A stretch of 64,000 nt of DNA from Bilabrum cf. latius (taxonomy: Eukaryota), in contig OZ237739.1 of NCBI GenBank assembly GCA_965178125.1, positions 558,001 to 622,000 of the forward strand, given 5' to 3'. Shown piece after piece: positions 1 through 64,000 of this stretch; the stretch's first letter is position 1; each line of letters opens with the position of its first letter. The position numbers were made by a program, and so were the translations under genes. Below the pieces are notes generated by a model. That model had not been told where the DNA came from. It worked only from the letters and a program-made list of their open reading frames with translations, and made no database searches.

Positions 1-3000
1 CTGAACTAGGTAGGCGAGCTAGCAGACGACATAACGCCAGACATGAATGCGATTCGGGTCAAGCTCGCATTGGCCCTGCGATTCGGAAGCGCCAAGATGC
101 CGTTTGGGACAGGTGGGGCCTACGGGAGTTATATGTCGGCGCACGGGCACGTCAGAGCGTCTTGCCGCCTCAGCCGCATCGAGCATTAGGCCGTGTGCGA
201 CATGCTTGACAACAAGGACATGTCAGAGAAGTGGCGAGCCCTCAGGTACGGTGACTCCATCCGGGCCACGTACTCCACCAATGGGGCTTCTGAGGGAAAT
301 TTCGGCTGGTATGGCACGATAGCAGAGGGGGGTCTTCACACCGCTGACTACATGTCATAGGCCCAAATACCGACAGAGACAAAATCTGCAAGTGGCTACG
401 TGTCTCTAACGTGGCCCGAGGACGGAAATCGCAACTGGTGCTTCAGTACGTATGGCTACGAGCCAATCGGGGATCTGAGCTCCAGTGCGAAAAAGTCAGT
501 CGATAAGATCAACAGCTTGCTTCCGCTGGCATGGAACTAGCACACGCCCTACCTCATCGAGCTTGCGTTGGGGAAGGCGCGCATTCGCCTTGTCGAAGGA
601 GGGGAAGAATGCGGCCGGCGATTCGCCCAAGTGCTCACGCGCTGGATGCAAGCGAAGCTGTTAGGTTGGAAACCGTACACGTTCTCCGGAAAACAGATGG
701 TGCCCTACTATATTGGTGCAATTGCCAGCGTGATTGATGCTGACGGTTCCCCTGCCACGGAGGGATCTAGCGGTGGCTGGCCGGTTCCTACTACGGAAAT
801 GCTAGCCAAGATCCAAACGTCATCGACTCAGACTTGGGTGAGGAGCTGGTTTCAAGCGCTGAAGGAATGCCCTACCTCTTCAAATCCGAGATTTGACAAA
901 TCGAAGTGGGCTGGCAAAGAAAATGAGATCCCTTGGGGCCACTTTCCCCCGATCCGGCTTGGCCTTGGCACGGGAGCGGATGACGGCACGGCGAACCCGC
1001 CGCAGGACATCACGTCGGACCTTCTGCCACCGGATCCGCCGGGCTGCTTCGACACGTGTCCAGATAGAGCCCTGGTTCTCCGCAAGTTTGACCACTCGGG
1101 TATAGCCACAGCCAGCGGTGCCGCCTCGGGATCGGGGAAGGGCCACGGGAGGCGGGGCTCTGTGAGCGGTGGCGGCGTGGGAATGGACGTGAGCGTGAGC
1201 AAGCTCGACCTGGCCCAATTCGCCACCATGCCGCTGGGTCTCCTGGCAGAGGAGCACACCTTGGTTCTGTCTGCTGCCCAGTCACAAGTGCGTGTGCCGT
1301 CTGGCAGTTTACCGTTCGACAAGACAACCGGACGTCCCATCGAGTCGTCTTTCGTTGCCGACGCCATGCTCAAGCGACTGGAGGACTCTTGTGCCACTTA
1401 CAAGGAGATTGTGGCTGGCCGGACTTCGGATGCGATGGCCTGCTTGGTGGTAGATGCCAACACGGACAAGCAGAGGCACCCGAAGCCAGAGGAGCTGTCT
1501 GCCATAGCGGGTCCGGCTATTGCTTCGCTTCAGCGGTTGCTGCAGCAGCTCGTCAAGCAGCGCCGCGAAGATCTCAAAGACGTCCGCAAAGGGTTTGCGT
1601 CTGTTTTGGCTGTGCTGAACAGGATTGAAGAAGTCGACACGAGCGATGACGCGCCGGCCGCCGCTGCATCTGGTGCGGGCAGCAGCGACCGACCGCCGCT
1701 GGTCGTAAAGACTAGCTTGGAGAGGCATGCCTTCCAGCGCACGTATGTGTGGGACGAGCTGTTGCTTGGCACGCTCCTAAGCTCAAGACCTGAATAGGAC
1801 TTGTTCAATCAGAACCCATGCATGTCGGCAGAACGAGCGAGAGCAGCCGTCGAGTGCGCGCATGCCTTGGCGCTCAAGGCCAACCGCGTGTCGCAGGCCA
1901 ACCGGTGCATTGGGCTAGCACAGCGACTGGCAGGAATGCTTGGGAAGATTCAAAGCTAGTTCAGCAATGCTGGTGCCCACTTTGGATCAGATGCTGTTTC
2001 TCCAGAGCAGATGGAGGCTCTTCGGTATGCACAAGAGGACCTCGCAGGATCGCTCCGCGGAGTCCGACCGTACGCCTCCATCTTCCCGAACGTCCCCATC
2101 GATTATCACAAGCTGGCAGAAGGCGCTGCGGATGCTCGTGAAGTGCAAGAAATATCCATGGATTCGCGGTTCCTGATGCTCGAGCTCATCAACGGCTGGC
2201 TGCTGCGTGGCGTACAGGTGGATGTGGTGGGTCGATTTTGCGAGGAGGCGTGCGTGCCCCTCTACGGACTTCCACCTTCCATGCAGTTCGGGCCCAACAC
2301 AGGACTCCCAGCGGATCAAATGTTTGCCAACAAGCCGGGATTTACGGGCTCGTCGTCCGAATCCAAGGGTGGCGAAGAAGAGAGCAAGGTGGAGCCGCCA
2401 GTGCCGGTTGACGATGACGGGGTGCCGGACCTCGCAGCTCTCGAGAAATACATCTCCTCGCTGGACCCATCTGGCTCCGGGGTCCAATCCCGAGTTCGGT
2501 CACTTGCTATGGGTGCCGGCAAGACGGCTTGCATCAGCGTTCTGCTCATTCTTGCAATGGCAGATGGGAAGCGCGTTGCCACGATCATGGCCCCCCCTGC
2601 CCTGCTCGCTCAGACCCAGGACCTAATGTGGGCCGCATTCGCCCGTATTATGCCAAAGCGGGTGGTGACTTTTAATTTCACACGGAGCTCCGCAGACAAT
2701 CCCAGCGAGCTGGCCGCCTTGCGACGAAAGCTAGAAGACACGGCAGAGCAGCGAGGTCTGGTGCTAACCTCACCAGGTGCAGTCAAGTCGATGCAGTTGC
2801 TCTTTGTGGAGCAGGCCGGCAAGGCGTTGGGCACAGACGGCAAGGGCTCTATCCGCTTGCTCTCGCAGGAAAGCCGCAAGCAGGCCATGGAGGCTGCCAA
2901 AGAGCTGGCCCAGATCACTGACATGTTTGGAAGGTCTCAGGGGGGTCGCCTGGTGATGGACGAGGTGGACATGATCCTAAGCCCGCTCAAGTCGGAGCTG

Positions 3001-6000
3001 CTGTATCCCGCTGGCAACACTGTAATGCTGTAGCCCAGGCCATATCGCTGGACATTCGTGGTGGATTTGCTGGAAACGATCACTACTGCTGCATTGCTCG
3101 AGGGCGCCGGCGACTCGAGGCGGTGCGCCCTGATAGCGGTGGACTCCGAGTCGGCTGGATCAGGAGCAGGCGAATCCAAGGGAGGAGACGAAGGCGGCGA
3201 CAAGGCTAGCTTGGCTGACGTGCAGAGCGGCCGGGGGCCCATGGGGCCGTTCCGCCGCGCGATCAGGCAGGGACTGGACCAGCAGATGCTGCAATCATCT
3301 CCTCACCTAGTGCTTTTGAATAAGGGCTTCTACCACCAGGTGCTTCGACCTGCCGCTGCCGAGTGGTCGGTGTGGTGGCTCATGAGCTCCAACGTGCTGC
3401 AGGCTAAGCAGAACGAAGAGCAGTCGAAAGCCACGGATTCGCCCGTCTCGGGCAAGGACCTCGAGTTGATCTTGCAGGCCGATCCAAAGACCACGGAGAA
3501 ACAGGCCAAGGCGTGCCTGCGCAAAGTGGCAGCCACCATCGGTCCGAAGAGCCAAGCTGCTCTCCGAATCGTGCTGGACTGGCTCAACAGCCTGCTGGCG
3601 CACGTGCTGGGCAAGGTCAACCGGGTTACGTACGGCATCCTGGGGCCGGGTGACGTGCAGCGCCTCCAGGCCATGGGCGGCGATGGCCTCGGCCGAGAGC
3701 GCCTGCTGACAGCTGTGCCTTTTGTTGGCAAGGATGTCCCCTCTGAGATGTCTTCCTTCGCCCAGCCCGACTGCCTCATCGGGATCACGACGAGCGCGTA
3801 CCTGTATGAGGGGCTCATGCCGAGGCACGTGAAGCGACTGGTGCAGGTCCAGCGTTTCAAGATGGGCCGAGAGTCGGGACCGCACCGCACCCGACCGTCG
3901 AGGATCGAGTTTCAAGGCTGGGTGGAGGACGCGATGCGGGTGTGGCGGGTGCGCTTCGGGGATGCCGCGGATGCCATCGCCCGGGCCAGGCAGGCCGCAG
4001 CCCGAAGCGGTGCTTCGTCTGCGTCCTTCATTCCCACGGCCGAGCAGCTGGACCTTTCTGAAGATGCATACAATGAGGCTGCTGCAGGACCCCCCATGGT
4101 TCCGCCGCTGGAGTTCTTGCAGACTACCGACGCGCCCCAGATGGCGCAGGTGTTCCGGCTGTTCCGGCTCTTTGGTCCCATGGTCCGCAGCTGGATGCTG
4201 ATGTACGTGTTTCCCACCGTGACGGACCACTAGGAGGCCAAGTTTTCCTCTTCTGGCGTGGACCTAGGGTCCGACTGCCTCTTTGGTGCCAGGTACGGCT
4301 TCTCGGGAACGCCCTCTGCCCTCGCTCCCCTGGACCTGGGCGAGTGCGACTTCGAGCCGGGTTCGGAGGGAAGGTTCCTCGACGTGCTGACGGACCCGCA
4401 AGTGGTGTGGGACTCCAGCGATGAGCTGATTCCCGGCCGCGAGTGGACCGTGCCAGGCCTGCTCAAGTCGATCGCCAACACCTCCCCGCCCTTCCATGCC
4501 CTCATCGACGCGGGCGCACTAATCACGGGCATGTCCAATCGCCAGGCAGCGGCGTACATGCTTCGCGTGGGCCTCAAGACGCTGCAGGGGTGCGTGTTCC
4601 TGGACGAAGACAACCAAAAGATGATTCTTGTGCGTGGCAAGTCAGAGGCCTTGCCGTTAGCCGAAGCCGGCATTCCTAAACATAAGCGTTTTACGATCTA
4701 TGACCAGAGCCACACGACGGGCATGGACATCAAGCAGGCTCCCAACGCTCGCGCCGTGCTCACGCTGGGCAAGGACTGCACATTTAGGGATGCTGCGCAG
4801 GCGGCCTGGCGCATGCGCGGTCTGGCGAAGGGGCAGACGCTCCGGCTTTGCGTGGTACCGGAGGTGCAAGGCCTTGTGAAGCAGGCTGTGGGCGCGGAGG
4901 CATTCGAAAAGGATCCGAGGATCCGATCGGTGGTGGCGTGGCTGGTTCGCAACAGCATCGAGCACGAGAGCTTGCAGTTCCAGCAGCTGTGCAGGCAGGA
5001 CCTTGCCAACGTCTGGAGGCGGGCCGCATTTGATGACCTGATGAGCATCTTTGGCATTGCGGGTCGGCAGTACGCCGAGAAAGGCTTGGTCCAGGATCTG
5101 CGAACCGTGCAGGAGCGAGTGAGCGTGTTCCGAGAGCCTGTCGACTTCACGCCAAAACTGGACCTCGAGGATGACCCGAGCGCTTCCGTCGGGGCTGCGG
5201 CTTCTTAGGGGGTCAGCAAGGATCCCGCGGAGAGCGCTCCGCTGGCAGGACTGGCGCGGTGGGCACGGGACACCATCCCGCAGTACATTCGTGGAGAGGC
5301 TGCCGAGAAGCGGCTGCTTGCCGTCCTGGAAAGAAACTCAATCGGAGCTGGTGTAGGAGGCAAGAAGAAGACGCAGCACCTGGACCAGGAGCAAGAACAA
5401 GAGCAAGAGGTGCTCCAGGAGGCCGAGCGGGAGCAGGACTAGGAAAAGGAGCTGGAGTACGTCGCCTGGTTCAAGCGCCCGGACATTGACGTGCGCAAGC
5501 CCAGCCCGTGGTCTATCGCTAGCCTAGAGAGTGCAAGCCGCAAGGTACAGAACTTTGCCGACAGCGGCGATGCGGTGAAGGCGCAGTCTGCTTTGCTCGG
5601 CGCTCTGGGGCAGGCAGCGTTTCACGCCTCTGAGTGGAAGCCGGACGATGACACGCCCATGCTATAGGCGCTGCGGCCGGGCCTGTGCCTTTCAAAATGG
5701 TTTACTCTGCAGGACGCGCAGAACCTGCCGGAGTACAAGGTGCAGTTCGCGCAGGTTGGCATGACCTTCAACGCCCTCGAGCCCGACCCACGAGGGGCAT
5801 CGGCTATGGCCGTGCAGGCTGGCGGTGGGGCCGCGGCAGCGGCGGGGTACAGGCCGGGAGGCGGTGCCATCGTGCCCGCTCTGTCTGGAGACTCGCAGCG
5901 CCGCATGGCTGGTGCTACTCCCATGGTCATCCTGTCGCTGGCCGAGGCAGAGGCGGTTCGTCGGGCGCTCCATGCGGCTAGTAGGGAGAGCGACGGCGGT

Positions 6001-6636
6001 CGGTCATCATCCTCGGGTGATGGGAAGCTGGCGGGCGTGCAGCTTTGGAACATTTCGCTTGGATAGCTGATCGATTCAGCGGGAGCTGGCGGCCCCTCGT
6101 CGTGTGGTGGAAAAGGGGGCGGCAAGTCGCGCGCAGAGGTGACGAGAGCACCGACTTGGGACGTACGTGTGGCCTTGGGGCGGTTTGCCAACTGCGACGT
6201 GTACATGCCAGATGAGTCTGCCACGGCGGCTCTCGTTCCACTTGCGGGCGTCCCAACGGACGACCGTCGCGTGTTCTTCGAGCGACTGGCGAGGCGCAGG
6301 AGGGGAGGTGCCACGGCCTGGGCGGGTACGCCGGTTGCCAAGCTGCTGACCGTCAAAGATCTGCAGTCTCTCAAGCATAGGGACGAGCAGGTTCAGAGGG
6401 TGCGGCAGGCACTGGCCAGCAAGGGCTGGGACCCCGATCGCCTATTCAAGGAGCTTGATGACGACCGATCTGGCACTTTGTCCGTGGCAGAGTTCCGAAA
6501 GCTGGTCAGCACGCTGAACCTGCCGCTGCCCGAGGGTGATGTGATGGATCTGTTGCACGCAGCGGATCGCGACATGGACGGGTTTGTCACGATGACCGAG
6601 TTCAGGCGAGCGTTTGCCGCTGTGGAGGACTCGTGA
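1..6636 (+). CDS. Giant DUF3638/DUF3645-type P-loop (SF2 helicase-like) protein with C-terminal EF-hand pair; 5'-partial, TAG=Gln
   Basis: Frame +1 is open from base 1 to TGA 6634-6636 except for 12 TAGs (7, 187, 358, 538, 1795, 1957, 3031, 4231, 5206, 5440, 5665, 6064). Motifs: Walker A-like AMGAGKT, MDEVD, AVPFVGKDVPS, YGFSGTPS, ALIDAGALITG, YDQSHTTGMDIKQ, QAAWRMRGL, EQEQEQE tract, EF-hands DDDRSGTLSVAE and DRDMDGFVTMTE. Confidence 0.85.
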
Positions 6637-8313: not shown

Positions 8314-11300
8314 ATGCGGAAAGCCTTTGGTGTATACGCTGTGCTTGCAGCGGTTGCTGCTGCCCATGAAAGGATTGCGGTGCTGAGCTCAGAGCTGCTG
8401 GAAAGCGAGTCGGCGCGCGGAAGCAAATCTGTGTCACACACTTGCATTCACGACGAGATCATGAAAAAAGCTACAGAAAAACGGGTATTGGCAGGTTTGC
8501 CGGCCGAACCAGCACCACGAGGCCTTCTCAACCCAAGCATTCACGAGCCGCACGCGCGGCATTTGACGTCGAGCGGGAGCTGGCGCCAAATGAGGATCAA
8601 GATCGACTACCAGAGCATGAGTGGGCTCACTGGGTCGGATTTGACATATTTCAAGGATACAATCATCGAACCTACGGTGGAAACCGTCAAGTCAATGCTG
8701 CAAGTACGACAGCGTCCCCAGTCAGCTGGAGGTGACAGCAAGCTCTTCCTCGGCTACCCTTGCTCCGGATACTACACTAGCTCTGCGAATGCCGGCAAGT
8801 GCAGATAGCTTGATACTACTAGAATATGTGGAACGGACGACATGGTCCTCGATGCTGAATACTTTGGAGCCAGTACGTACTACACAAGCTGCAACACTGC
8901 CGGGTAGTGCACGGAGCAGACAACGACTGCTGGCGATGGAGCGGCAGACGCAGATTTCGTTTTGATCGTGTCGGCACAGCAAGTTAGCAATTGCAACTCT
9001 GGTGCAGCTGCGTATGCATCTACCTGCCTCAGGGATGACCTGGATAGGCCTGTCGCCGGACACTTCAACATGTGTCCGAACAGCCTGAGCACGAACACAA
9101 ACGACCTCGCCAAAATGCGGCAGATTGCACTCCATGAGGTTTTCCACGCCATTTTTTTCTCGTCCTCGAACTTCAAGTACATGCGGAACCCAAGCAGCTT
9201 GGAGCCATACCTGGACAGGGACGAGAGCATCGAGGGTCGCCTGGACGTTACGACGCACTCGACGTCCTGCGACGGCGGAAGGACCCAGAGCAACCCTGCA
9301 TTCCCTTCGGATGTCATCCAATGGTCCGGGGAGCGGGGCCAACCCAGCTGCCCTGACGATGCAACTGCAGCCACGCTCGGGCAGAGCAGCTGCACCCAAC
9401 GCGTGGTGCTACCAAAGGTGCGCGATGCTGCCCGCCACTACTTTGGGTGTGATGACCTCGCTGGACCAGAACTTGAGAACGATGACACCAGCTGCAGCCA
9501 CGTGTCCTCGCATTGGGAAAGGCGCATGTTCTACTCTGACACAATGGCTACCACCATTGGAGCTCACAGCATCACGACGCCGGTAACGCTTGCCTTCTTC
9601 GAGTCGAGTGGCTGGTACAAAGCAAACTATACCTCTGTGTAGAGCATTGAAGCTCCTGGGCGCGACTGGGCAAGGTACGCAGGCTGTGACCTAGCCAGGG
9701 ACGAGAAAGGGCTCAGTGGGTCACCGCTTGTAAGCGTGACGTCTGGCGCTCCTGCCAGCAGCGGGCGCTCCTACTTCTGCACAGAGACTGAAACGTACTC
9801 TGTCTGCTCATTCGATCGCAGAGAGAGGGGCTCTTGCTAGATCAAGTCCGACTACGGTGCGTCTGATTTGCCAAGCTACAGGAGGTATTTCGGGGAATCG
9901 GCAGCACCCTACAAAGCCGGCAGATCGAAGCAACTGGACTTCCTGCCCTATGTGACCGGGAGCGCCTGCTCAGATACTGACAACCACAGGTCGGGCCAGT
10001 ACGATGCAGAGTTTGGAACATTTTACGGTGCCAAGTCGGCCTGTTTCGATGCAACGCTGGTGCTTTCCGACTCGTAGTACAACTTTGGAACGCAAATTCA
10101 GTCAGGCTGCTTCCGGTACGAGTGTGCGGCAGATGCGGCGGAGAGCTACAAGGTGTTTTTCCTCTCTCGAGACGGGGACTCAGAGGTGAACGTTACATGC
10201 ACGGAAGAGGAAGAAATCTCAGTGCCTGGATTCTCAGGCACCTTCGGGTGCGTGGCTCCTCGATTCTTTTGCCCGAAGAGCAACGAGGCTCCGGACGCCA
10301 CCCTGTCAACCACGAGTGTTACGTTCTCGGAGACCACAGCTACTGCTGAACCCCTGTTTCCATCAATCACATTGGATGATTCCGACGACACCACTTTGTC
10401 TGCACTTGTCATGCTCACCGATGCGCAAGTTGGTGATGTGATCCAAAAGGCTAGCGCAGACGACGACATTGAGCTCCACAGCGACGGATTCGGCGCCACG
10501 ATCTCTGCAGTATCAAAATCTGACCTAGCAACGAAGCTACAGAAACTAGGGTACAAATCGACGGTGAGCTACACAGACACGTTAACAAGGTCGATCGAAC
10601 TGGTGGTAACAGATAATGCAGCAAGCCAGCTGGCTGTGCAAGGCAGGCAAGTGAGATCTCTTTCGGCAACCATCACCCCTTCAAACCAAGCGCCTGTCAT
10701 CACGCTGGGCACGGCGCCGTCCGACTTCTATGAGTCCACTGGCACGGCCGTGGCGCTCTTCTCGGGCGTGTCCATCGCGGACGCGGACGACGTGCAGGTG
10801 ACGGCCAGCGTCAGCATCCAGAGCTCGCAGACCGGTGACGCGCTGACCGCCGGGGCTGGCGTGAAGTTGGCAGGAGACGGGCTGAGCGCCACGGTGGCTG
10901 CATCATCGCTGGCCGACATGGCCACGGCGCTGGCCACGATCAAGTTCGCCAACACCGCCGACTACGTGACGCCGCTGACTCGCACTGTGCGGCTGACGGT
11001 GGAAGACCTGGGGTCGCAGGGCCAGCTGAGCAGCAGCAAGCAGGCTAGCAGCGAGGATGTGACCGTGACCATCGTGGCGGACAATGATGCGCCTGGCATC
11101 ACGCTGGGCACGGCGCCGTCCGACTTCGATGAGTCCACTGGCACGGCCGTGGCGCTCTTCTCGGGCGTGTCCATCGAGGACGCGGACGACGTGCAGGTGA
11201 CGGCCAGCGTCAGCATCCAGAGCTCGCAGACCGGTGACGCGCTGACCGCCGGGGCTGGCGTGAAGTTGGCAGGAGACGGGCTGAGCGCCACGGTGGCTGC

Positions 11301-14300
11301 ATCATCGCTGGCCGACATGGCCACGGCGCTGGCCACGATCAAGTTCGCCAACACCGCCGACTACGTGACGCCGCTGACTCGCACTGTGCGGCTGACGGTG
11401 GAAGACCTGGGGTCGCAGGGCCAGCTGAGCAGCAGCAAGCAGGCTAGCAGCGAGAATGTGACCGTGACCATCGTGGCGAACAATGATGCGCCTGGCATCA
11501 CGCTGGGCACGGCGCCGTCCGACTTCGATGAGTCCACTGGCACGGCCGTGGCGCTCTTCTCGGGCGTGTCCATCGAGGACGCGGACGACGTGCAGGTGAC
11601 GGCCAGCGTCAGCATCCAGAGCTCGCAGACCGGTGACGCGCTGACCGCCGGGGCTGGCGTGAAGTTGGCAGGAGACGGGCTGAGCGCCACGGTGGCTGCA
11701 TCATCGCTGGCCGACATGGCCACGGCGCTGGCCACGATCAAGTTCGCCAACACCGCCAACTACGTGACGCCGCTGACTCGCACTGTGCGGCTGACGGTGG
11801 AAGACCTGGGGTCGCAGGGCCAGCTGAGCAGCAGCAAGCAGGCTAGCAGCGAGAATGTGACCGTGACCATCGTGGCGGACAATGATGCGCTTGGCATCAC
11901 GCTGGGCACGGCGCCGTCCGACTTCGATGAGTCCGCTGGCACGGCCGTGGCGCTCTTCTCGGGCGTGTCCATCGAGGACGCGGACGACGTGCAGGTGACG
12001 GCCAGCGTCAGCATCCAGAGCTCGCAGACCGGTGACGCGCTGACCGCCGGGGCTGGCGTGAAGTTGGCAGAGGACGGGCTGAGCGCCACGGTGGCTGCAT
12101 CATCGCTGGCCGACATGGCCACGGCGCTGGCCACGATCAAGTTCGCCAACACCGCCGACTACGTGACGCCGCTGACTCGCACTGTGCGGCTGACGGTGGA
12201 AGACCTGGGGTCGCAGGGCCAGCTGAGCAGCAGCAAGCAGGCTAGCAGCGAGAATGTGACCGTGACCATCGTGGCGAACAATGATGCGCCTGGCATCACG
12301 CTGGGCACGGCGCCGTCCGACTTCTATGAGTCCACTGGCACGGCCGTGGCGCTCTTCTCGGGCGTGTCCATCGAGGACGCGGACGACGTGCAGGTGACGG
12401 CCAGCGTCAGCATCCAGAGCTCGCAGACCGGTGACGCGCTGACCGCCGGGGCTGGCGTGAAGTTGGCAGGAGACGGGCTGAGCGCCACGGTGGCTGCATC
12501 ATCGCTGGCCGACATGGCCACGGCGCTGGCCACGATCAAGTTCGCCAACACCGCCGACTACGTGACGCCGCTGACTCGCACTGTGCGGCTGACGGTGGAA
12601 GACCTGGGGTCGCAGGGCCAGCTGAGCAGCAGCAAGCAGGCTAGCAGCGAGAATGTGACCGTGACCATCGTGGCGGACAATGATGCGCCTGGCATCACGC
12701 TGGGCACGGCGCCGTCCGACTTCTATGAGTCCACTGGCACGGCCGTGGCGCTCTTCTCGGGCGTGTCCATCGAGGACGCGGACGACGTGCAGGTGACGGC
12801 CAGCGTCAGCATCCAGAGCTCGCAGACCGGTGACGTGCTGACCGCCGGGGCTGGCGTGAAGTTGGCAGGAGACGGGCTGAGCGCCACGGTGGCTGCATCA
12901 TCGCTGGCCGACATGGCCACGGCGCTGGCCACGATCAAGTTCGCCAACACCGCCGACTACGTGACGCCGCTGACTCGCACTGTGCGGCTGACGGTGGAAG
13001 ACCTGGGGTCGCAGGGCCAGCTGAGCAGCAGCAAGCAGGCTAGCAGCGAGAATGTGACCGTGACCATCGTGGCGGACAATGATGCGCCTGCCATCAGGCT
13101 GGGCACGGCGCCGTCCGACTTCGATGAGTCCGCTGGCACGGCCGTGGCGCTCTTCTCGGGCGTGTCCATCGAGGACGCGGACGACGTGCAGGTGACGGCC
13201 AGCGTCAGCATCCAGAGCTCGCAGACCGGTGACGCGCTGACCGCCGGGGCTGGCGTGAAGTTGGCAGAGGACGGGCTGAGCGCCACGGTGGCTGCATCAT
13301 CGCTGGCCGACATGGCCACGGCGCTGGCCACGATCAAGTTCGCCAACACCGCCGACTACGTGACGCCGCTGACTCGCACTGTGCGGCTGACGGTGGAAGA
13401 CCTGGGGTCGCAGGGCCAGCTGAGCAGCAGCAAGCAGGCTAGCAGCGAGAATGTGACCGTGACCATCGTGGCGGACAATGATGCGCCTGGCATCACGCTG
13501 GGCACGGCGCCGTCCGACTTCGATGAGTCCGCTGGCACGGCCGTGGCGCTCTTCTCGGGCGTGTCCATCGAGGACGCGGACGACGTGCAGGTGACGGCCA
13601 GCGTCAGCATCCAGAGCTCGCAGACCGGTGACGCGCTGACCGCCGGGGCTGGCGTGAAGTTGGCAGGAGACGGGCTGAGCGCCACGGTGGCTGCATCATC
13701 GCTGGCCGACATGGCCACGGCGCTGGCCACGATCAAGTTCGCCAACACCGCCGACTACGTGACGCCGCTGACTCGCACTGTGCGGCTGACGGTGGAAGAC
13801 CTGGGGTCGCAGGGCCAGCTGAGCAGCAGCAAGCAGGCTAGCAGCGAGAATGTGACCGTGACCATCGTGGCGGACAATGATGCGCCTGGCATCACGCTGG
13901 GCACGGCGCCGTCCGACTTCGATGAGTCCGCTGGCACGGCCGTGGCGCTCTTCTCGGGCGTGTCCATCGAGGACGCGGACGACGTGCAGGTGACGGCCAG
14001 CGTCAGCATCCAGAGCTCGCAGACCGGTGACGCGCTGACCGCCGGGGCTGGCGTGAAGTTGGCAGGAGACGGGCTGAGCGCCACGGTGGCTGCATCATCG
14101 CTGGCCGACATGGCCACGGCGCTGGCCACGATCAAGTTCGCCAACACCGCCGACTACGTGACGCCGCTGACTCGCACTGTGCGGCTGACGGTGGAAGACC
14201 TGGGGTCGCAGGGCCAGCTGAGCAGCAGCAAGCAGGCTAGCAGCGAGAATGTGACCGTGACCATCGTGGCGGACAATGATGCGCCTGCCATCAGGCTGGG

Positions 14301-20300: not shown

Positions 20301-21756
20301 TGCGGATGGAGGCGCCTGCGTGTGCTTCCACAGCAGCAACTCCATTATCATTCCGGCACTGAGCGCTCTACCACAGGCAGACTTCCTCCCGGAGCGGTTT
20401 TACAAGAGCGGTGGTGGTTGTCCTGAGCATTGCTCTGGCCACGGCACTTGCCGGGCGCACGGAAAATGTGCGTGCTTTGCTGGATGGGGCGGGTATTCGT
20501 GCGACCAGCGGCTATGTCCCTTTGCCGAGGCATGGAGCGATGGAGACATCCCTAGAGTCGGACGCAGACCCTTGGAATGCGGTGGAATGGGTCAGTGCGA
20601 TCGCAGCAGTGGGACTTGCGTCTGCCTGGCAGGATTTGAAGGGCCAGCGTGCGAGCGCATGAGCTGCCCAGGCGGGTGTTCCGGCCACGGAATGTGCCGG
20701 TACATCAACGAGCTGCCAGCAGTCATGGGCTACTCTGAGTGGGACGCGAGCCGAATCTAGGCGTGTGTCTGTGACGGTGGATACTTTGGATCCGACTGCT
20801 CTCTTCGCAGATGCCCGTTCGGGGACGACCCTCAGACGCGCTGCGAAGAGGGCATTACTCATCAGCAGGTACTCACCATTGCAGCACCGCGTGCTGCTTC
20901 AGCCGGATCGGGTCTACAGGTGCGATAGGGTGCGGGGAGTATCGGGCTCACGTTCAAGTCAGCTGAGGGCACCGAGTACAAGCTGCCGCGCATCGACGAC
21001 GTCTATCCGTAGACTGCCACAGCCTGGAACCGTGCAGCCGTGGAGGAGCGAATCACCGCGGCTTTTCGGGCGCTGCCAGACTAGGCAGTAGACGACATCA
21101 CGGTCACCGCCCCTGCATCCTTCGATCCAAGCACTCAAACCGGTCTGGAGATCACACTGGACTTCACCGGTAGCACCACTCCAAGCGATCAGTTCCTCAT
21201 CCAATGCTCCACAGGGTGCGAGTTGGCGGGTTGCAGACCGAGACACCTGCAGTTGCGCCTGCAGGCGGTTCCGAGTACTCTTGACATTGTGATGGCCGCA
21301 AACACGATGGTGCAGCTGCCGTCCAGCGCCCCAACGTCTGCAGTTGGGGCGCTCTACACGTTCACCTACACGGCAAACTCGGACCTTGCGTCGGGTTATT
21401 CCGTTGTGGCTACGCAGGCTTGGGTGGATGCCAGCGGTACAACCGTTGGTGGAGCAGGGACAACCGTCCTAGAGGCACCGGTCCCTCTGGGCGAGTCTCG
21501 CCCGATCGTTGTCGGGTCGACAGGATTCGCAGTTACGTTCGACTCGAGCCAGATTGCCGGAAATTCACCAGGTACAGCCCGATCTTTTGAGCTGTATCCC
21601 GTTGGGTGCAGCGCGCGGTTGGAGCGGCGCGCGAGCGCAACCACTGAGGCAGTTGAGTGTGGAAACCGGGGCACGTGCGACAGGGCCTCGGGACTGTGTG
21701 ATTGCTTCCAGGGGTACGCAGGGTCTGCCTGCTCGGAACCAGTGCAGTCGACTTGA
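8314..21756 (+). CDS. Giant secreted leishmanolysin-like (peptidase M8/GP63) metalloprotease with ~20 Ig/cadherin-like repeats and a C-terminal EGF-rich mastigoneme-protein-like region (~4480 aa, TAG=Gln)
   Basis: One frame from ATG 8314 to TGA 21754-21756 with ~22 TAGs and no TAA/TGA. Signal peptide MRKAFGVYAVLAAVAAA; propeptide HTCIHD; ADFVLIV; zinc motif HEVFH; ELEND..SHWERR; LAFFESSGWY; NDAP..DADD repeats; EGF units CSGHGTC; WDASRI(Q)ACVCDGGYFGSDCSLRRCPFGDDP; terminal ECGNRGTCDRASGLCDCFQGYAGSAC. Confidence 0.9.
10690..17010 (+). repeat. Intragenic tandem array of 16 near-identical 399-bp (133-aa) units
   Basis: The unit marker (atcacgctgggcacggcgccgtccgacttc or a variant) recurs every 399 bp from ~10699 to ~16684. 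Units differ by only a few substitutions. Diverged copies of the same domain flank the array. Confidence 0.97.
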
Positions 21757-21841
21757 AAATATAATATAGTATATATTGTTCTTGACTATCCGGATCAACT
21801 ATGTGCAATTGACTAACTATTGAATACCCGTACAAATCTTT

Positions 21842-49500: not shown

Positions 49501-52174
49501 ATCATTTGCCTCGTTGACTTCGGATGACATGAATAAGTAGAGCTCCGTGGGAGACTCTTCAACGGTAGGATCTCAAGTTCTGAGCTCACCGCGTGTCCAC
49601 GGTATGAAAGGAGAGGAAGGCAGTCCGCGTCACGGGGCACTGCTTGCCCCGGTCATGGCTCAGCAGAGGGGGCAATCCACAGGAGCCGCTGGGCACGCAG
49701 CAGGCATGGAAGGCGCATACGCAGTCGGGACGCCAAAGATGGAATCCAACGGCAGAAGTCGATACCTTAGTGCGGACGGTCCGCACGTCGCAGTTGCGGG
49801 CAGTCCGTGGGGCGGGCTACCGCCTGGCGTAATCGCAGCTTCTGAGTGTTCGGATGCCAATGCACAGGTCAAGGAGGCCCAGGGCAAGGCCATGGCTGGT
49901 GCGAGTCACCGTGGCATCGTACTTGAGCAAAGAGGACACACTGTACATGCGATGCTTCACGGGATCAGTGCCATGGACGGCGAAGCAGACGCATTCGCCC
50001 CCCCTGTTGCCAAGAGGCAATCAAGTGCAGCTTCATCAGTGGCCTCTACAGGGTCGGCGATCGTGAGGCTGACCGACGACGAAGAGAGGTACGAGGGCAC
50101 GGTCGGCATGGACGTATACTGGGAGTATTTCGTGTCGCTTGGCGGCTGGTCCTTCCTGTTCACGTTCGGGCTCCTTTCAATTGCGCTACAGGGGGCCCAG
50201 GAGGGAGGCAGTGTCTGGATCGCGCTTTGGACCGGGAGCGGACGTGGTGGAGACCTGTCGCAGGAGCGATCTCCTCTCCTTCGGCTGGGCTTGTCTTCTG
50301 ATATGTGCCTGATCGTCTACCTAGCTCTCGGTGTGATGACTGCCTTGTTCTCCGTTGTCAGGAATTTTGCGTGGTTCCAGGCAGCTGTGGAAGCAGGAAG
50401 GCGCATGCACGACCTTCTGCTGGGAGCGGTGCTGCGAGCTCCGCTTAGCTTCTTCCAGACCACGCCACAAGGGCGTATTCTGAATCGGTTCTCGAAGGAT
50501 GTCACAGAGGTCGACCAATCGCTTCCGGATGAGCTCAGTGACGTGCTGTTGATCATATTCAGCACGGGATTCAGCCTTGTCGCTGTGTCTGTTGCTTCTC
50601 CGTGGTTTCTGCTGGTCTTTCCTGTCGTGGGTCTGATCTACTACTGGGTCATGTCGTATTACCGAGCCTCAGCGCGGGAGCTGAAGAGGCTGCAGGCGAT
50701 TTTCTATAGCCCCGTGCACCAGAGGATGGGCGAGACAGCCGAGGGCCTCGTGTGCATTCGTGCGTTCGGCCTGCAGGACCATGAGAGGGAGCAGCTTTGG
50801 ATTGCCATCAACCGCGCCAATACCGTCGAATACACGCAGCGAATGGCTAGCGTCTGGATGGCCATGCGCGTTGATCTGCTCGGGGCAATGTTGATGGCAG
50901 GCGCATGTGCCATGGCCACACTGGCAATCACGCCAGGCCCGGACAAGTACATGGCCGGCGAAGCTACTCTCCTAGCTTTGAGCGTTTCGGAGGCTTCTGG
51001 CCTGCTGGACGGAATTGCATGGCTTGTTCAATGCATCTGCATGGTGGAGGCGGATATGGCCAGGGTGGAAAGGCTGAAGCATTATGCCGCCATCAAGCCA
51101 GAAGGCGAGCTGCGAGCGGGGAAGCCAGTAGCAAGCGGCGGTAAATCACCTGCAGCTGGCAGCAAATCTGCTTCGCAGCTGGTGCCCCCTCCCTCAGACT
51201 GGCCCACCCGTGGAGAAATCGAGTTCAAGGATGTGTGGCTAAGGTACAGGAAAGGCTTGCCAAATGTGCTGCGGGGCGTGTCGTTCCGCGTACCCGCTGG
51301 CTGTAAGGCGGCCCTGGTGGGCCGCACTGGGAGCGGCAAGAGCACCACTCTGGCTGCACTGTACAGATCGGCGGATATCACCAGGGGAAGTGTTGTTATC
51401 GATGGCATTGATACTGCAACCATGGGCCTCAGAGACCTGCGGGAGAACCTCGCTATCGTGCCGCAGGACGGGGCTGTCATCTCCGGCACCATCCGCTCGG
51501 TGGTATCGCCCCAGGGGCCCGACCCTCTGCTCGGACCTCGTAGCCGGCTGTCGCTCCATGCGTCATCTTCAGAACATGCAGCGGGTCGTCGTATGAAAGC
51601 AGATGAGTCTGTTAGTGAGGGTGTGCGCAGGCTGGAGCTAGGTCTCGAATGGGATCCGGACATGGGGAGGCCGTACGTGGAAGCTCCTGGCGATGGTCAG
51701 ATCTGGAGCGCATTAGAACGAGTAGGAATGGCGGAGCGGGTCCTAGCGATGGAAAGACGACTCGACACTCCCGTAGACGAGGGTGGTACCAGCCTCAGCT
51801 TGGGCGAGAGGCAGCTGCTATGCCTTGCAAGGGCGCTGCTTCGGGACGCTCCAGTGCTCGCGCTGGACGAAGCGACGGCCTCTGTGTCTGTGGAGGCAGA
51901 CCAGGCCGTGCAGTAGGCTCTGCGAGAGCACTGCAGGGGTCGAACTATCCTAACGATCGCGCATCGATTGGCCACGATCATCGACTATGATGTGGTTGTT
52001 GTGTTGGGAGATGGCCGGGTGTTGGAGCAAGGTTTGCCGGCCGATTTGCTGCAGCAAACCGACAGCGCCTTTGCTTCAATGGTAGATGCTACTGGGCCAG
52101 AGTCCGCTCAGTTTCTGCGAAGAGCTGCGCGGCGGGCAGCACGAAGGAAACCAGCGAAACGGGGGGCGTAGTGA
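46533..52174 (+). CDS. ABC transporter, ABCC/MRP subfamily (TMD-NBD-TMD-NBD); first exon and intron 46572-46819 tentative
   Basis: Frame +2 is open from 46820 to TGA 52172-52174 except for TAGs. NBD1: GPVGSGKT, VSGGQKARI, YLLDDPLSAVD. TMD2: FFQTTPQGRILNRFSKD. NBD2: GRTGSGKS, LSLGERQLLCLARALL, LDEATASV, TIAHRLATIIDYD. Confidence 0.9.
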
Positions 52175-52347: not shown

Positions 52348-55300
52348 TTATCCTATTGTGCCCGCTATCTGCCGATGGATAGTGTGCAACAGCTGGGTGG
52401 CCTACGCTCGCACCGGATGATCTGCAGCCAGCAACGCAAGAGCTCGGGCCTGCATTACAGTAGCAGGTTCAAGTGCCTCAAAGAATCTACCGCGATCCAG
52501 CAGCTCGCAGGCAAGCGAAAATGAAAGCTGCGCACTGAGCGGAGGCCGGCTGCCGCTGGACTGCAGCCTCCAGCCAGGCCGGGTTTTCTACTCGTCTTCC
52601 CATTTCGAGCACACCTTGATCCCGGCTTGCCAGGCCTACGTGGCACCATCCAGATCACCAACGTTCGCAAGAGTTTGCATCTGCTGCCCAAAACAGTTCG
52701 CGGCCCGCAAGGGCCAGTCTGGAAGCGTGGCCGGAGACGCCCGCAAGCACGCCTGCCCTGCCCTGCCGATGATCGAAGCAGATTGCTTGAGCGCACCAGC
52801 CTCTGCCAGCAATTTCGCAGCTTTAGAGGCCTACTAAATCAGCTGCGGTACACCATCCGGGATGCAGTACGGCTCCAGCGTCTCGATGCATCGCTGCAGA
52901 GCATCGGCTGCTTGATCTGTGTTCCCAAGGCGCACGGCGCACACGCCAGTATTGAAGTAGTAGGAAGCAAGCCTAGGGCCCCCTTCGTCTGGCCTCAATG
53001 CCAGTAGCTCCGCCGTGCATTCGATGTTCATCTTGAGCGCCCTCTCGCCCTGTCCGCAGTAGAGAAGAGCGGTGGCCAAGTTGCCCTTGCACGCAAGTGC
53101 GCCCGGCCTGCAGTCCTCGGTCCCAGACTCAGACATTGCGATTTGAAATTGCTCCAGCGATTCTTCTAGCACCGGAATGGATCTATCTGGCATGCCTTGT
53201 GCGATGTAGATAGAGCCAAGCTATTGCAGCGCCCTTGCAAGTTGCTCTGCCCCACCTCCAGTCGACTTGATCCTCCTTCCGATCGCAATACTCTCTCGGT
53301 TCAATGCAAGTGCGTCGTCAAGCTTTTTTGCTTGGACCAGGCAGTCGATTGCGTTGTATATTTCTCGCTTGTATGCACCAGAAGCCTCCCCATAGGTCTA
53401 CTTGATCACGGACAGGAGCCTCATGTACTTGTCATTCGCCTCCGCGAATTGGCCCATGTGCTTGAGGCACATCGCGATGTGCGCGGAAGTTGTCAAAGTG
53501 TCGCTGTAATCCGCGCGATATAGCGCCCGTTGATTCTCCTCTGCCTCCATAAATGACTAGAGCGCCACCGAAAAGTGACCCGCAGACATGTGCATGAGAC
53601 CAAGGTTGCTCTGAGTGGACACGAGCATAGTTCTAGCGTCGCTGGCACTGATACACGGACCGGTCAGCTCGGCAATAGCATCTAAGCACCAACTCAAGTG
53701 TGCAATCGCTGTTTCAATGTCTCCAATCATGTGGAACAACTACCCGATGTAGTTTCGCGCCTCGATCATTTGCCTGACAAGCACATATCTAGCTTTCAAA
53801 TTAGGATTGTCCAACCGAAATGCAACCTGCTCTTCGGACAAGGCCTCTCGAATCAGTCCAAGAGACTTGGCATGGTCAAGACACTACTGATAAATGCGTG
53901 TAGCTGCCTCAAGCGCTACTCCTCGGCAGCCGGGGCGAGATAGAGGCCGCATGAGAGTGCCAACACCATGGGGCCCAAGAATCAACTTGCTCCAATACTC
54001 GGACCTAGTGCCAAGCATAGCAAAAACCATAAAAACTTGCGGAAGCTCATCCGACGCTGCCTTAGTAAGCGCTCTGATGACCTAAATCAGCACATGAATG
54101 GGTTTCCCGGTCACTGACAATGCTCGGACGAGCAGCGCAGGAACCATCGCAACAAGCTACCCGTGTTCGAGTGATGCACCCATGAGCTATAGAATCTAAG
54201 CAACTTCACCAAATGGCGCATCGGGCTCTGCCTGCACGGATGATTGAGTGTGGGCGAGCTGTCGAAGTAGCCCTTGCGTGTGTCTGACGAGCAAGTCGGT
54301 ATTGAGGGAGCCATCAGTACCAGCCTTGAACACGTCGCGCTTTGCTGCTTCAGACACGCCAATGACCTTGGACGGAAGATCAGTGCCTGCGGCAGGACTT
54401 GACTCTGATCCATCTTCGTGGGGAGCTTCTGCGTCGATATTGTCGTCCCGCTCAGTAGCTCCGGTTGATGGACGCAAGCTGCTGCTTCTGGCCCGCGTCT
54501 GCAGCCAATGCCTCAGCAAGGGCTCGGCGCAAGACTGCCACGACTGCTTTGCAGAGCCGGAACCCGCACAGTCCGGCAAAGAAGCACCCCTGGCGCACAA
54601 TATCCGCGCTCGCAAAGCCACGGCAACCAGTCGGTCTACAACTGCCCCTGCAACCCGCGGTTCAAGGCGGCTCGCTCGCACGGTTTCAGCAACTGACATG
54701 AGTGCGTCTGCCAGCGCGTCTCCCATGGGAGAGATTGCAGCGGGAAGTCCCGCACAGGCTGCAACCTGAAACAGAGCTGCAGACCATGGTGCACCACCTG
54801 CGGCTTTGGCACACCTAACAGTATACCGCAGTAGGTGGCCGAATGCTCGAAGTGGAAGTCCTACTGAATGCAGACCCTCTTTGCACGCTTTTCGAATCTC
54901 GAACATCTTGGCGATTGGTACGTCAGCAACCTCTTCATAAGCTTGGGATTCTGGCTGCAAGGGCCAAGCTCTTGCAACGGAGCTGCCGACTAGCCGCAAC
55001 TCCTCGTACACAGCCATAGATGCCTCCTGCAAGTTGCGGGCGCTGTACAGTCCTTGTATTGCATCTGTCATTGAGTCTCTTGCGCCCTTGGCAGTCACAG
55101 GAGTGCCGTACGATACGCCGTCAGCACACCCTCTCATCCTGCTGTCGGGGCAAAACCGAGGCAGTCCCAGCTACCGTGCACGACTGGCAGCTTGCGGAGG
55201 CATCATGCAGGATAGGTTAGCGTTTCTCCCATGCATCATGCGGGGACAGCACGCTACAATGAACAGCGTGGCGTAGGACTCATTGGTCTAGCTGCTGGCA

Positions 55301-57741
55301 CTGGCAGTGGGATCTGCATCACCCGTAACAGTTGATGCCTGCATCCCTACGATGCCCGCCCCTGCATTTTCGAATGAGATCGAGAGAGGACCGATGTCTT
55401 TCAAGCATTCCATTTTGCCTTGCTGTGTGGCAAGCCAGCTTGCAGCACCCTTGCGCAATACAGCAGCAAAATGACTAGACCACGCTCGATGCATGTCTTT
55501 ACAGTCTGATCGCAGTCTTGGCGGCAGCACATGTGGCAGTAGGACTGGACCGGATGAGAGCATCTCGTCGGGGCGGCCAGCTCGCTGCACTGCGACAATG
55601 GACCAGAATCGAGGGGCCATATCGGAGCTGGTGGCCATGGCGTTCTAGAACACTACGTCTGGGCACAGAAGCCTGTGAGTATCGAGAAGGAACCGTTGGC
55701 CGGCACCACCCTAGTGCAACTCTACATCAAAAGGCAAATGGCAATAAATGGGCTTCGCTACTGCTGTGGTGGCTGACGCATGCGTGACCCGTCTTGGCAG
55801 CGCTGGACACGACAGGTCTACACCGGCTTGCACCAGGGTCTCTGCAAGACCCCTGGCAAGGCGAACGGGCCGATAGGGGCCTAGAAGTTGCAACATTGTG
55901 TCTGTCCCAGACGAGTCATGTGCGGCAGCACGCATTCTTACCGCGTCCATCAAGAGCATCGAGTCTCCATCCGATGATACAGAAGCCGCTAGCGCTTCCA
56001 TCTCGATCATGTTACACCCTAGGCTCTACATCCAGAGCTTGGCATCGGTTCCCACCGGTGGAACCTTCCGTTCAGGGTCGTGAATGCCTCTGAAAAACTC
56101 CCTTGGATCCGTGTTGCTGCTCCAAGTCAGCGGCGGCTCAACCACATTTGGGCCAGCGGCAGCCTGACCAGCTGGTGGATCACCCGGTCGATAGCTGTGG
56201 GTGACAACGTGCTCGGTTTGCATGTGACAGCCAGTGAGATGAAATCGGTCCGCCACTTGCCGGGCAAGTCCCAATTGGGCTTCATCACAGTGCAAGTGCA
56301 AGCGACTGTCTTGCGAGCCGAGGCGCAAAGTGTGCGCCCCCACTGCCAGGCGAGCGAAGGCTTGCACACGGCAGGATCGCACAGACTGCAAACTGGGCGA
56401 CGCAAGCAAATCGTACATGCTCTTCTTTTGAGTAGCACCTGCACCTGCATCTGCACCTGCACCTGCACCTGCACCTGCACCTGCACCTGCACCTGCACCT
56501 GCACCTGCACCTGCACCTGCACCTGCACCTGCACCTGCACCTGCACCTGCACCTGCACCTGCACCTGCACCTGCACCTGCACCTACGCCAAGTCCAGAAG
56601 CTACACCGGTTCCAGAGCTGTACTGTGGCCCATCTCCACCGCTCTCATCCAATGCACAAGCGAACGCCTCCGAACTTGAAATATCTCCGGCACCAGCCCC
56701 AGATTTGGGGTGTTGGTCATCACCAGAACTAGGTAGATCTATATCAACGCAAACCGTGAGAGGAGCGCTAGCCTCAACGATGTCAGAATCGTGAATCCAT
56801 GCAGCCGCTGCTGCTTCCCGCTTGGCCGCTTTGGCAGCCGCTGCCTCAACACAATAGATCCCAATTTCGTCGCTTGGCGTCTTCATAAAGACTCCGCGTT
56901 GGATGCTTTGGGCCTTGGCCCCGCCAGCTCGACCTGCAGATGCTGACAGGAGCTGTACTGATGGAGTGGCGCTCTCCAGCCCGACACGGGCTCCCTCAGC
57001 TGCGCGGCATCTATCAAGAGCAGTCAGCAGCCCCGCCAGTTCTTGGGCGGATGCAACAGCATCTGCGTAGAATTCATCCCCAGCATTCGCTAGTTCATCT
57101 CTGCGGGACTGCTTCTCCAAGTTACTCGTCGGAATCTGGAGGCGAATCTTTCTGAATCGTTCCTGGTGGTCCCGTTGGTTCGGTGTCCATGGAGATACGT
57201 TCTGAGTGCCGCTACCCACAGTACTTGAAGGTGCTGTGGTCTTGCTAGAAACGCTCTCAGTCTTTGTTTTTGATAGGGGCTATTGCTGCATTTCAATTGC
57301 TTCGGTGACCAACGGTGCCGCTTGCGGACTGGTCGCATCAGCGCCAGCTTCGATGCACATGGGTGCATATGCATGACTAACAGCAGCAGCTTTGCTTGAA
57401 CTGAAATCCGATGCTGCATGTGAAGAGTCGGGAACAGACTGCCTAGTTGTGGATGCGCAGAGCTTCGGTGCACCATGTTCGCAGATCGGCGGTGTGATGT
57501 CGACTAGAGAATACTCTGGTGCGTTTCCTCTGCGATAAGCATACGGCACTGAGCTTGCTCCAACACTTCTCTCTTCTGCAGGCCGTGCGGAAGCGGGGGC
57601 TGCACCAGAAGCCTCTTGTTCCTGACGCGGCTCAGCTGCAGCATATGGCTCCTCATCCTCAACACCGATATCCCTCAAACAATCCTCGAGAACTGCATCA
57701 AGCGCGTCACTATCTACAGAATTTCCACCGCTGGCAGACAT
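52348..57741 (-). CDS. CLU-domain-like protein with C-terminal TPR repeats (~1797 aa, TAG=Gln)
   Basis: Seven track ORFs share one frame joined by ~20 TAGs and end at TAA 52348-52350. CLU-like motifs: GGAK..RGVFMK, AAAKAAKRE, APLTVCVD, DVELH(Q)GGAGQRFLLDTHRLLCPD, LHSVGLPLRAFG. TPR-like helices: QSNLGLMHMSAG, LGSIYIAQG, GNLATALLYCG, YYFNTG. Confidence 0.75.
56436..56584. repeat. Hexanucleotide microsatellite (GCACCT)n, ~25 copies, encoding poly(Gly-Ala) in the CLU/TPR gene
   Basis: Directly visible; one variant unit gcatct. Confidence 0.97.
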
Positions 57742-57869
57742 AACTGCCTGAATGCAACAAGAACCGTCGAAACGAATTGCGATTTCCAGATTCCGAGTGC
57801 CACAATTGATATTGCACCAAAAAATAAAAAGCTCTGCCATAGAATCAATACTCCATAACGATCAGACAA

Positions 57870-63254: not shown

Positions 63255-64000
63255 ATGCCCAGGAAAAGTAGGTCTTCAATTGCTTCGGAAGATGAAAGCG
63301 ACAATGATTCTGGCGACAGTTTGAGTGACGTGATAGAAGATGTGGAAGATATTACCAGCGCAAGCCGGGGAGCCTTGCGGAAGGGTGGAGCCGACGGCGT
63401 TCAAATAGGCTCAATCCTGCAGAGAGAGCAAGCGTTAGCATCGCGAGAGGCCGGCCTAACACATCGCGAAAAGGCGCTGGCATCTCGTGAAGCCGCCCTG
63501 GCTCGCGCCCAGGCTGCCATGAAGCTGCGGGAGAAATCACTGCTTGAGCTATTGCAACAGAAGGACCTGGTTCTGTCACCTTCCAGAAAGCGTAAGCTGG
63601 TGGATGATGTTGAACTTGTCGACGGGACTGCCTTATTCGGTACGGATGATGAGGATAGCAGCTACGGTGCGGTGTCGTCGCCAAGTGCAGCCTCAGCAGC
63701 AGCCCGCGGTGGCAGCGGGAGAGGTCGAGGGCGAGGTCGAGGCCGAGGGCGAGGTCGCGGTAGGGGAAGAGGGCGTGGTGGAGCAATTGCACCCACCGCC
63801 AGCCTTGGTAGCAGCGAGGGTAGCCCGCAGCCAGCTGAAGCCAGCACCAAGCTGGGCAGCAGCCGGGGACGAGGGAGGGGCAGGGGCAGAGGCAGGGGTC
63901 GCGGGCGAGGAGTCGCATCTAGTGCGTCTAGCGGGTCCACGAAATCGGCAACACCCATGTCGCCCAGGGCCAAGAGCCCTGGCCAGGCCAAGGGTGGGCC
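63255..64000 (+). CDS. RG-repeat-rich protein, 3'-partial
   Basis: Open frame from ATG 63255 (MPRKSRSSIASEDESDNDSGD) to the window end, with a short coiled coil, an RKRK motif and two GRGRGRGRG tracts. Confidence 0.7.
   Translation, partial: MPRKSRSSIASEDESDNDSGDSLSDVIEDVEDITSASRGALRKGGADGVQIGSILQREQALASREAGLTHREKALASREAALARAQAAMKLREKSLLELLQQKDLVLSPSRKRKLVDDVELVDGTALFGTDDEDSSYGAVSSPSAASAAARGGSGRGRGRGRGRGRGRGRGRGRGGAIAPTASLGSSEGSPQPAEASTKLGSSRGRGRGRGRGRGRGRGVASSASSGSTKSATPMSPRAKSPGQAKGG

Follow-up and report, generated by a model that had tools for sequence, protein, structure and literature searches.

The window analysed here is a stretch of 64,000 nucleotides from Bilabrum cf. latius (GenBank assembly GCA_965178125.1, contig OZ237739.1, positions 558,001 to 622,000 of the forward strand), and our subject is the genetic code in which its genes are written. 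Both strands are densely filled with large genes, and the reading frames of these genes are interrupted by TAG, never by TAA or TGA. The window quite probably represents the nuclear genome of a eukaryote rich in guanine and cytosine (GC), with short GT..AG introns, in which UAG has turned from a stop into a sense codon, most likely for glutamine (Gln), with UGA as the main and UAA as a minor terminator (translation table 15).

Genes of the window

The G+C content is 61% for the whole window and ranges from 56 to 74% across windows of 4 kilobases (kb). With TAG read as sense, the open reading frames (ORFs) reach 4480, 2211, 1830, 1801, 1780, and 1655 amino acids, among others; under translation table 11 the same large genes are broken into pieces. 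When TGA is freed instead of TAG, even more long ORFs appear in this GC-rich DNA. The length of an ORF is by itself a weak proof under such conditions, and the stop codons were therefore counted by frame. A profile search of the window proteins places Pfam domains in the TAG-sense frames, and since these domains span TAG codons, the genes are real. The features are as follows (families marked Pfam come from this search).

43 to 6636, plus strand: gene for a DUF3638/DUF3645/EF-hand protein (Pfam); 11 in-frame TAG; ends in TGA
8314 to 21756, plus strand: leishmanolysin-like gene (Peptidase_M8, hereafter M8) with teneurin-type EGF domains (Pfam); 22 in-frame TAG; ends in TGA
21842 to 24718, minus strand: gene without family assignment; 6 in-frame TAG; ends in TAA
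24907 to 26068, plus strand: Thioredoxin-domain gene (Pfam), intron 24951-25077; 3 TAG in the confirmed coding part; ends in TGA
26142 to 28766, plus strand: gene for a zf-MYND protein (Pfam), start uncertain; 5 in-frame TAG; ends in TGA
28844 to 29697, minus strand: PIH1_CS gene (DNAAF6/PIH1D3-like; Pfam), introns 29155-29242 and 29463-29559; 1 TAG (29135-29137); ends in TGA
29762 to 32876, plus strand: paralogue A, introns 30062-30144 and about 31892-32018; 8 in-frame TAG; ends in TGA
33785 to 37107, minus strand: paralogue B, inverted relative to A; ends in TAA
37570 to 37645, minus strand: tRNA-Asn(GUU), the sole intact tRNA gene of the window
38203 to 43608, plus strand: gene for a coiled-coil protein with Gly-Gln repeats; 6 in-frame TAG; ends in TGA
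44086 to 46266, plus strand: gene for a Beta_helix protein (Pfam); 3 in-frame TAG; ends in TGA
46832 to 52174, plus strand: gene for an ABCC-type ABC transporter (ABC_membrane, ABC_tran); 8 in-frame TAG; ends in TGA
52348 to 57840, minus strand: gene for a TPR/CLU-like protein (Pfam; the CLU match is weak); 20 in-frame TAG; ends in TAA
57870 to 62837, minus strand: gene without family assignment; 17 in-frame TAG; ends in TGA

Stop codons by frame

The count comprised 12 curated gene models with 17,899 in-frame codons; paralogue B is a thirteenth gene and stands outside it. The introns of the models were taken from spliced contigs and checked for open frames, and the expectation for each triplet was derived from the other two frames. 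TAG occurs 112 times in frame, against 110 expected from the off-frame rate, whereas TAA and TGA are absent, against 33 and 366 expected, respectively. With an in-frame rate equal to its off-frame rate, TAG is treated like any sense triplet, and no TAA or TGA is tolerated in frame. That UAG is a sense codon and that UAA and UGA are stops is well supported. Of the 112 TAGs, two precede the position where the thioredoxin gene probably starts. Three other TAGs, near the 5' end of the ORF 24890-26068, fall outside the spliced frame: one in the intron 24951-25077 and two off-frame in exon 1.

The first-pass annotation, made from the letters alone, had described 13 genes interrupted by more than 100 TAGs and by no other stop triplet, and the 12 models bear this out. 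Its terminators were found again as well: ten TGA and three TAA over the 13 genes (TAA at 21842, 33785, and 52348), which leaves ten TGA and two TAA within the counted models. At each of the positions it had singled out (5440, 17008, 20758, 29135, 31270, 43036, and 44920) a TAG is present.

TAG in spliced transcripts

Eight sequencing runs contain at least half of one 9.9-kb stretch of the window, and none of them is recorded as RNA. Four runs were compared with the window over positions 17100-33700. In two of these, X5 and X8, which come from two different studies, the contigs lack five stretches that are bounded by GT..AG (by CT..AC for minus-strand genes): 24951-25077, 29155-29242, 29463-29559, 30062-30144, and about 31892-32016. 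The skipped segments are 83-127 nucleotides (nt) long. Run X1, in turn, holds an unspliced contig of 9,951 bases over 20316-30266, which crosses three of them. Because the contigs are spliced at GT..AG boundaries, X5 and X8 contain RNA, and the stretches missing from them are nuclear spliceosomal introns.

Inside the compared pieces, 28 in-frame TAGs in X5 and 7 in X8 show no other letter. Fifteen TAGs of the M8 gene lie within RNA contigs of X5 without a difference, as do all six of the gene at 21842-24718. The TAG of the PIH1_CS gene (29135) stands on spliced contigs of both runs, and those of the thioredoxin gene (25133, 25205, and 25811) stand together on one spliced X8 contig. The check on mature transcripts that the first-pass annotation had proposed thus finds the TAGs retained and unchanged, and since they lie on spliced contigs without differences, editing and splicing-out are excluded for those positions.

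Relatives with the same interruptions

Short proteins turned up in a full HMMER search with the M8 domain; they are fragments produced by standard-code gene calling. Two of them, P0149 and P0299, match residues 177-587 of the window protein at 97% identity, and both stop immediately before its TAG 588; P0150 (91% identical) ends immediately before TAG 165. A more distant relative is L001, a metagenome contig of 2,323 base pairs (bp) with 56% G+C, whose M8 protein is 48% identical to that of the window. Its frame of about 768 codons carries four TAG interruptions and no TAA or TGA, and the five proteins of its cluster, all called with the standard code, stop at residue 669, with TAG 670 as the next codon. 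The use of UAG as a sense codon is therefore common to the window organism and this distant environmental relative. A scan of genome contigs with the M8 domain found no relative. For the TPR/CLU protein, a word-based search gave only three TPR-kinase matches, and a metagenome scan found no relative.

Identity of the residue: close comparisons

Seven close comparisons (at least 91% identity) place a residue opposite a TAG: it is Gln in six, aspartate (Asp) in one, and glutamate (Glu) in none. In the M8 gene, TAG 443 and TAG 509 both face Gln in P0149/P0299. TAG 30343 of paralogue A faces CAG in paralogue B. For the transporter, the direction is reversed, in that the proteins of relatives break off where the window has Gln: fragment P0321 (93% identical) stops exactly before Gln 1213 (CAA, 50468) and fragment P0322 (98% identical) exactly before Gln 1336 (CAG, 50837). 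At a Gln content of 3.5% in the ABCC protein, two fragment ends would both fall before Gln by chance with a probability of about 0.035 squared, or about 0.001.

Paralogues A and B share 95.5% nucleotide identity over 2695 aligned bases (30133-32836 against 33801-36495), and at six codons both copies have TAG. In exon 1, TAG 29942 of A stands opposite CAA of B. The first-pass annotation had cited exchanges of TAG with CAG and CAA between the copies; those at 30343 and 29942 hold, whereas that at 32016 (TAG/CAG) is the acceptor AG of an intron and not a codon. The label 'glycosidase' that had been given to paralogue A found no counterpart, as the protein matches no Pfam family and no PDB entry. 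The two copies form an inverted duplication, arranged tail to tail; they are unlike at the C-terminus and in the terminator, which is TGA in A and TAA in B.

Repeats give the same residue. The M8 gene holds a tandem array of 399-bp units at 10690-17007 (15.8 copies, 98% identity, 133 residues per unit), and the repeat GSQG*L reported at 17008 was found as described: 15 units carry CAG and the sixteenth carries TAG, which is the sixth Gln pairing among the seven close comparisons. The array itself is free of TAG and forms the longest standard-code ORF of the window. The reported Gly-Gln repeat of the coiled-coil gene (43009-43041) likewise reads GGC CAG GGG CAG GGC CAG GGC CAG GGC TAG GGG. Across the larger distance to L001, its TAG 322 aligns with a window Gln (CAA) in the motif GERGQP, where P0149, P0208, and P0152 also have Gln, and M8 residue 509 (TAG in the window) is Gln in L001 and in P0161.

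Several points among these comparisons weigh against Gln. M8 TAG 198 (8905-8907) faces Asp in P0149/P0299, and TAG 36819 of paralogue B faces AAG (lysine, Lys) in A. The change from TAG to CAG is a single transition, which would dominate under any meaning of TAG at unconstrained sites. P0321 and P0322 are known as proteins only, and the stop codon opposite CAA 50468 could be TAA rather than TAG, in which case the relatives might read TAA as sense, too. As for TAG 198, the pairing is a two-base difference within one codon amid nearly identical sequence; it stands alongside the Asp-leaning column test described below.

Identity of the residue: columns of distant homologues

Columns of distant homologues were scored with a Codetta-like test on three proteins: ABCC (120 homologues), DUF3638 (25), and M8 (150). 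The unmasked test recovered 61 of 61 sense codons, but this control is biased by the query residue, and it was replaced by masked controls. Since a query residue biases its own alignment, a random 10% of the residues were masked to X in 14 replicates, and the substitution model was taken from the masked columns. Fifteen TAG columns with at least 10 aligned residues were scored. Four of the eight TAG positions of ABCC are among those with at least 10 aligned residues, all of them variable columns. Two TAGs of the thioredoxin gene (258 PDB matches) looked variable by eye and were left out of the column counts. The exon of the PIH1D3-like gene found in the PDB only the CS domain of PIH1D1, which does not cover its TAG.

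Over the 15 columns, hydrophobic residues are disfavoured by more than 9 nats (leucine, Leu, -11.75). Gln is not the residue that the columns favour, and it fits them poorly. Asp is slightly preferred, followed by Gln (-1.23 nats), serine (Ser, -1.50), and Glu (-1.92). A Gln-minus-Asp difference as low as this arises in 0.5% of 2,000 entropy-matched resamples of true Gln columns and in 64% of the true Asp sets. Three columns contribute most of the Asp signal: DUF3638 residue 997 (Asp in 13 of 19 homologues, in a solid alignment), M8 residue 443 (D 46, E 26, and Q 11 of 128, yet a relative with 97% identity has Gln there), and ABCC residue 76 (Asp in 8 of 17). Good conservation is confined to two of the 15 columns, which point to different residues: the Asp column at DUF3638 997 and a Gln column at DUF3638 1397, where 13 of 23 homologues have Gln and the block is well aligned. 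The comparison of codons with profile columns that the first-pass annotation had recommended is thus divided, with the column at 1397 on its side and the total over all columns on the other.

The results would accord with a code in which UAG is sense for another residue (Asp or Glu, less likely Ser or Lys) and UAA and UGA are stops. Asp leads the distant columns with Gln, Ser, and Glu all within 2 nats, true Gln controls rarely resemble the TAG columns, and Asp recurs both in the conserved column at 997 and opposite TAG 198; moreover, codes with UAG as Glu, Leu, or Ser are known elsewhere, as the accessible part of one survey records (PMC11687900). Three arguments make the close comparisons the weightier evidence. 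Proteins that are 93-98% identical almost always carry one and the same amino acid at an aligned position, TAG must change at two bases to become an Asp codon, and a UAG that meant Glu should be paired mostly with its synonym GAG, which was never seen. A tRNA-Asp(CUA) would presumably need two anticodon changes, and the accessible text of the cited literature holds no code with UAG as Asp. The Gln column at 1397 and the GERGQP motif, which pairs Gln with a TAG of L001, also speak for Gln. We consider another residue unlikely. The conflict between close comparisons and columns is real, and for this reason our confidence in Gln is kept high but clearly short of certainty. The assignment of UAG to Gln, which the first-pass annotation had proposed, is carried by six of the seven close comparisons and is at odds with the lead of Asp in the distant columns; on balance these sequence comparisons suggest Gln with moderately good support.

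Sequence context and possible termination at TAG

UAG could be mostly sense and yet end some genes, either through its context or because eRF1 competes for it (an ambiguous stop/sense code). Three observations point that way and count against a purely sense UAG: in four genes the last TAG lies 1, 13, 18, and 22 codons before the terminator, where about 1.7 such genes are expected by a hand estimate; the ABCC gene ends in GCG TAG TGA (52166-52174), with TAG directly before the terminator; and genes terminated by TAG would be invisible to ORF-based models. The TAGs per decile of gene length number 15, 11, 5, 10, 9, 10, 12, 9, 14, and 17, so that there is no depletion toward the gene ends (17 of 112 in the last decile). 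The base after an in-frame TAG is A in 0.24, C in 0.24, G in 0.34, and T in 0.18 of cases, without a marked context at the +4 position. The even spread and the lack of a +4 context speak against context-dependent readthrough, as does an in-frame rate equal to the off-frame rate, and every gene has a TGA or TAA terminator of its own. In a code of the Condylostoma or karyorelict type several stop codons would be expected in frame, and they would thin out just upstream of the true gene ends, whereas here TAG alone is in frame. Occasional use of TAG as a stop may occur; an ambiguous code as such appears rather improbable.

With respect to the immediate neighbourhood, G precedes an in-frame TAG in 38% of cases and CAG in 63% (p ~1e-7, all gene models), which means that the surroundings of TAG and CAG are not quite alike.

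UAA as a possible second glutamine codon

TAA could be rare only through GC-richness in a genome where UAG and UAA both encode Gln (UAR = Gln, table 6). Such a code is reported outside ciliates for Amoeboaphelidium protococcarum, where TAG and TAA would both stand for Gln (PMC5304391, PMC6299283, accessible parts), and the relative's transporter fragment P0321 ends opposite a window CAA, which is one transition from TAA. The codon usage makes this explanation very improbable. The 12 models use CAG 601 times and CAA 159 times; the ratio of TAG to CAG (112:601), applied to the 159 CAA, predicts about 30 in-frame TAA, and none is observed. In-frame TAA at Gln columns, which the first-pass annotation had associated with an ordinary table 6, was found in none of the 17,899 codons of the models. 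The three TAA terminators stand at plausible gene ends. After the TAA at 21842 the frame remains open for more than 100 codons, running into the antisense of the neighbouring gene, and because a readthrough would consist of the neighbour's antisense it is absurd as coding sequence.

An artefact (pseudogenes, assembly errors, or removal of TAG by editing or splicing) is hardly credible. No observation in its favour was found, and against it stand the facts that in-frame stop triplets are of a single kind, that DNA and RNA contigs of several runs are identical with no differences and carry TAGs on spliced contigs, that six TAGs are common to both paralogues, and that a distant relative has the matching pattern.

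Decoding machinery

The reading of UAG as Gln would involve a tRNA-Gln(CUA), as established knowledge of such codes suggests. Only the anticodon CUA pairs with UAG but not with UAA (PMC5304391, accessible part), so that tRNA-Gln(CUA) is the likely decoder. It may have arisen from tRNA-Gln(CUG) by one change. By analogy with known codes, eRF1 would have a weakened recognition of UAG while still recognising UAA and UGA. The 64-kb window provides no tRNA-Gln(CUA), which weighs against the proposal as far as this stretch is concerned: it contains only the tRNA-Asn(GUU) and a truncated Asn-like copy. There is also no eRF1 gene in the window.

A tRNA-like element of 61 bases lies between the paralogues (33010-33070, plus strand), with the anticodon GUU, without a D arm, and followed by a run of T. 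It scores 30 bits, where the gathering score is 29. It is not a tRNA for Gln and is probably a degenerate copy of tRNA-Asn.

Other observations

The coiled-coil gene (38203-43608) falls in a stretch of 74% GC (40-44 kb). Antisense and off-frame ORFs of up to 1306 amino acids across it are by-products of the base composition, and mechanical ORF lists are misleading there.

Contigs of both DNA and RNA runs (X1, X5, and X8) link position 18161 or 22785 to about 28640 through 27-40 foreign letters. Loose contig ends accumulate at 28640-28641, at the 3' end of the zf-MYND gene; this may reflect a repeat or an artefact of the assembly graph.

Lineage and significance

The best named matches of the ABCC protein are fungi (many of them chytrids) and green algae, at about 35% identity, while those of DUF3638 are oomycetes, a dinoflagellate, and a trypanosome (34-38%). 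The placement as a stramenopile flagellate, offered in the first-pass annotation, finds no footing in matches so scattered. The PIH1_CS protein would suit a flagellate, without being proof of one. Two metagenome runs labelled as algae and protist contain a small share of the window's words, which could fit a parasite of algae; runs X9 to X12, with small shares of this kind, were not used as evidence. With 61% GC, introns of 83-127 nt, and at least 64 kb of contiguous sequence, the window bears no resemblance to what we take to be typical of ciliate macronuclear DNA.

Most likely the window represents one more lineage, rich in GC, that uses an already known but rare variant of the code (table 15). 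An independent origin of UAG-only Gln in a GC-rich, TGA-terminating lineage that is neither ciliate nor Iotanema, and that includes uncultured environmental relatives like L001, is a tentative proposal for which the case is nearly, though not quite, balanced. If it is true, a reassignment at 61% GC would not fit the loss of a codon under AT mutation pressure, and this misfit would favour the route of an ambiguous intermediate by way of a mutated copy of a tRNA-Gln(CUG) gene.

Nuclear codes that part UAG from UAA are rare, and they show that eRF1 can discriminate between stops differing by one purine. A further, GC-rich lineage with public DNA and RNA runs would offer an independent case for the comparison of changes in eRF1 and tRNA-Gln, and it would test whether such reassignments need AT pressure at all. 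On the practical side, standard-code gene calling shreds these genes, the public protein collections contain only fragments that stop at TAG, and the annotation of this genome requires table 15.

Comparison with known codes

The comparisons below draw on the accessible parts of the cited papers. In the full-text literature, subscription papers and supplements aside, no report of UAG-only Gln was found beyond Iotanema and ciliates. Iotanema spirale (Fornicata) reads UAG as Gln with UAA and UGA as stops, and UAA is its primary terminator; the predicted mechanism is a tRNA-Gln(CUA) combined with an altered eRF1 (T32G in the GTS motif) (PMC5304391). The window resembles it in having a nuclear code where only UAG is reassigned, to Gln by our reading, and UAA is kept as a stop, and differs in being GC-rich and in that TGA ends 10 of its 13 genes.

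UAG-only Gln is also described for the ciliates Hartmannula sinica, Trochilia petrani, and Protocruzia tuzeti, where UAG is scattered through the genes in the way its Gln synonyms are and gives no hint of carrying two meanings (PMC11687900). The table 15 pattern and the spread of TAG over gene bodies are shared with the window. In these ciliates 93.5-100% of the C-terminal protein alignments (under table 1) end at UAA, whereas the window is mainly TGA-terminated and has 61% GC.

Amoeboaphelidium protococcarum (Aphelida), in which UAG and UAA are both reported as Gln (PMC5304391, PMC6299283, PMC11687900), has in common with the window a reassignment from stop to Gln outside ciliates; it differs from it in the treatment of TAA, which in the window is in frame at 0 of 17,899 codons and ends three genes. 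Finally, the rhizarian exLh (UAG as Leu) and Scotinosphaera (UAG as Ser) are nuclear codes in which UAG is uncoupled from UAA (PMC5304391, PMC11687900), and the window is like them in this uncoupling. It is unlike exLh in that Leu falls far behind in the column test (-11.75 nats) and is absent from the close comparisons, and unlike Scotinosphaera in that Ser is likewise absent from the close comparisons, though within 1.5 nats on the distant columns.

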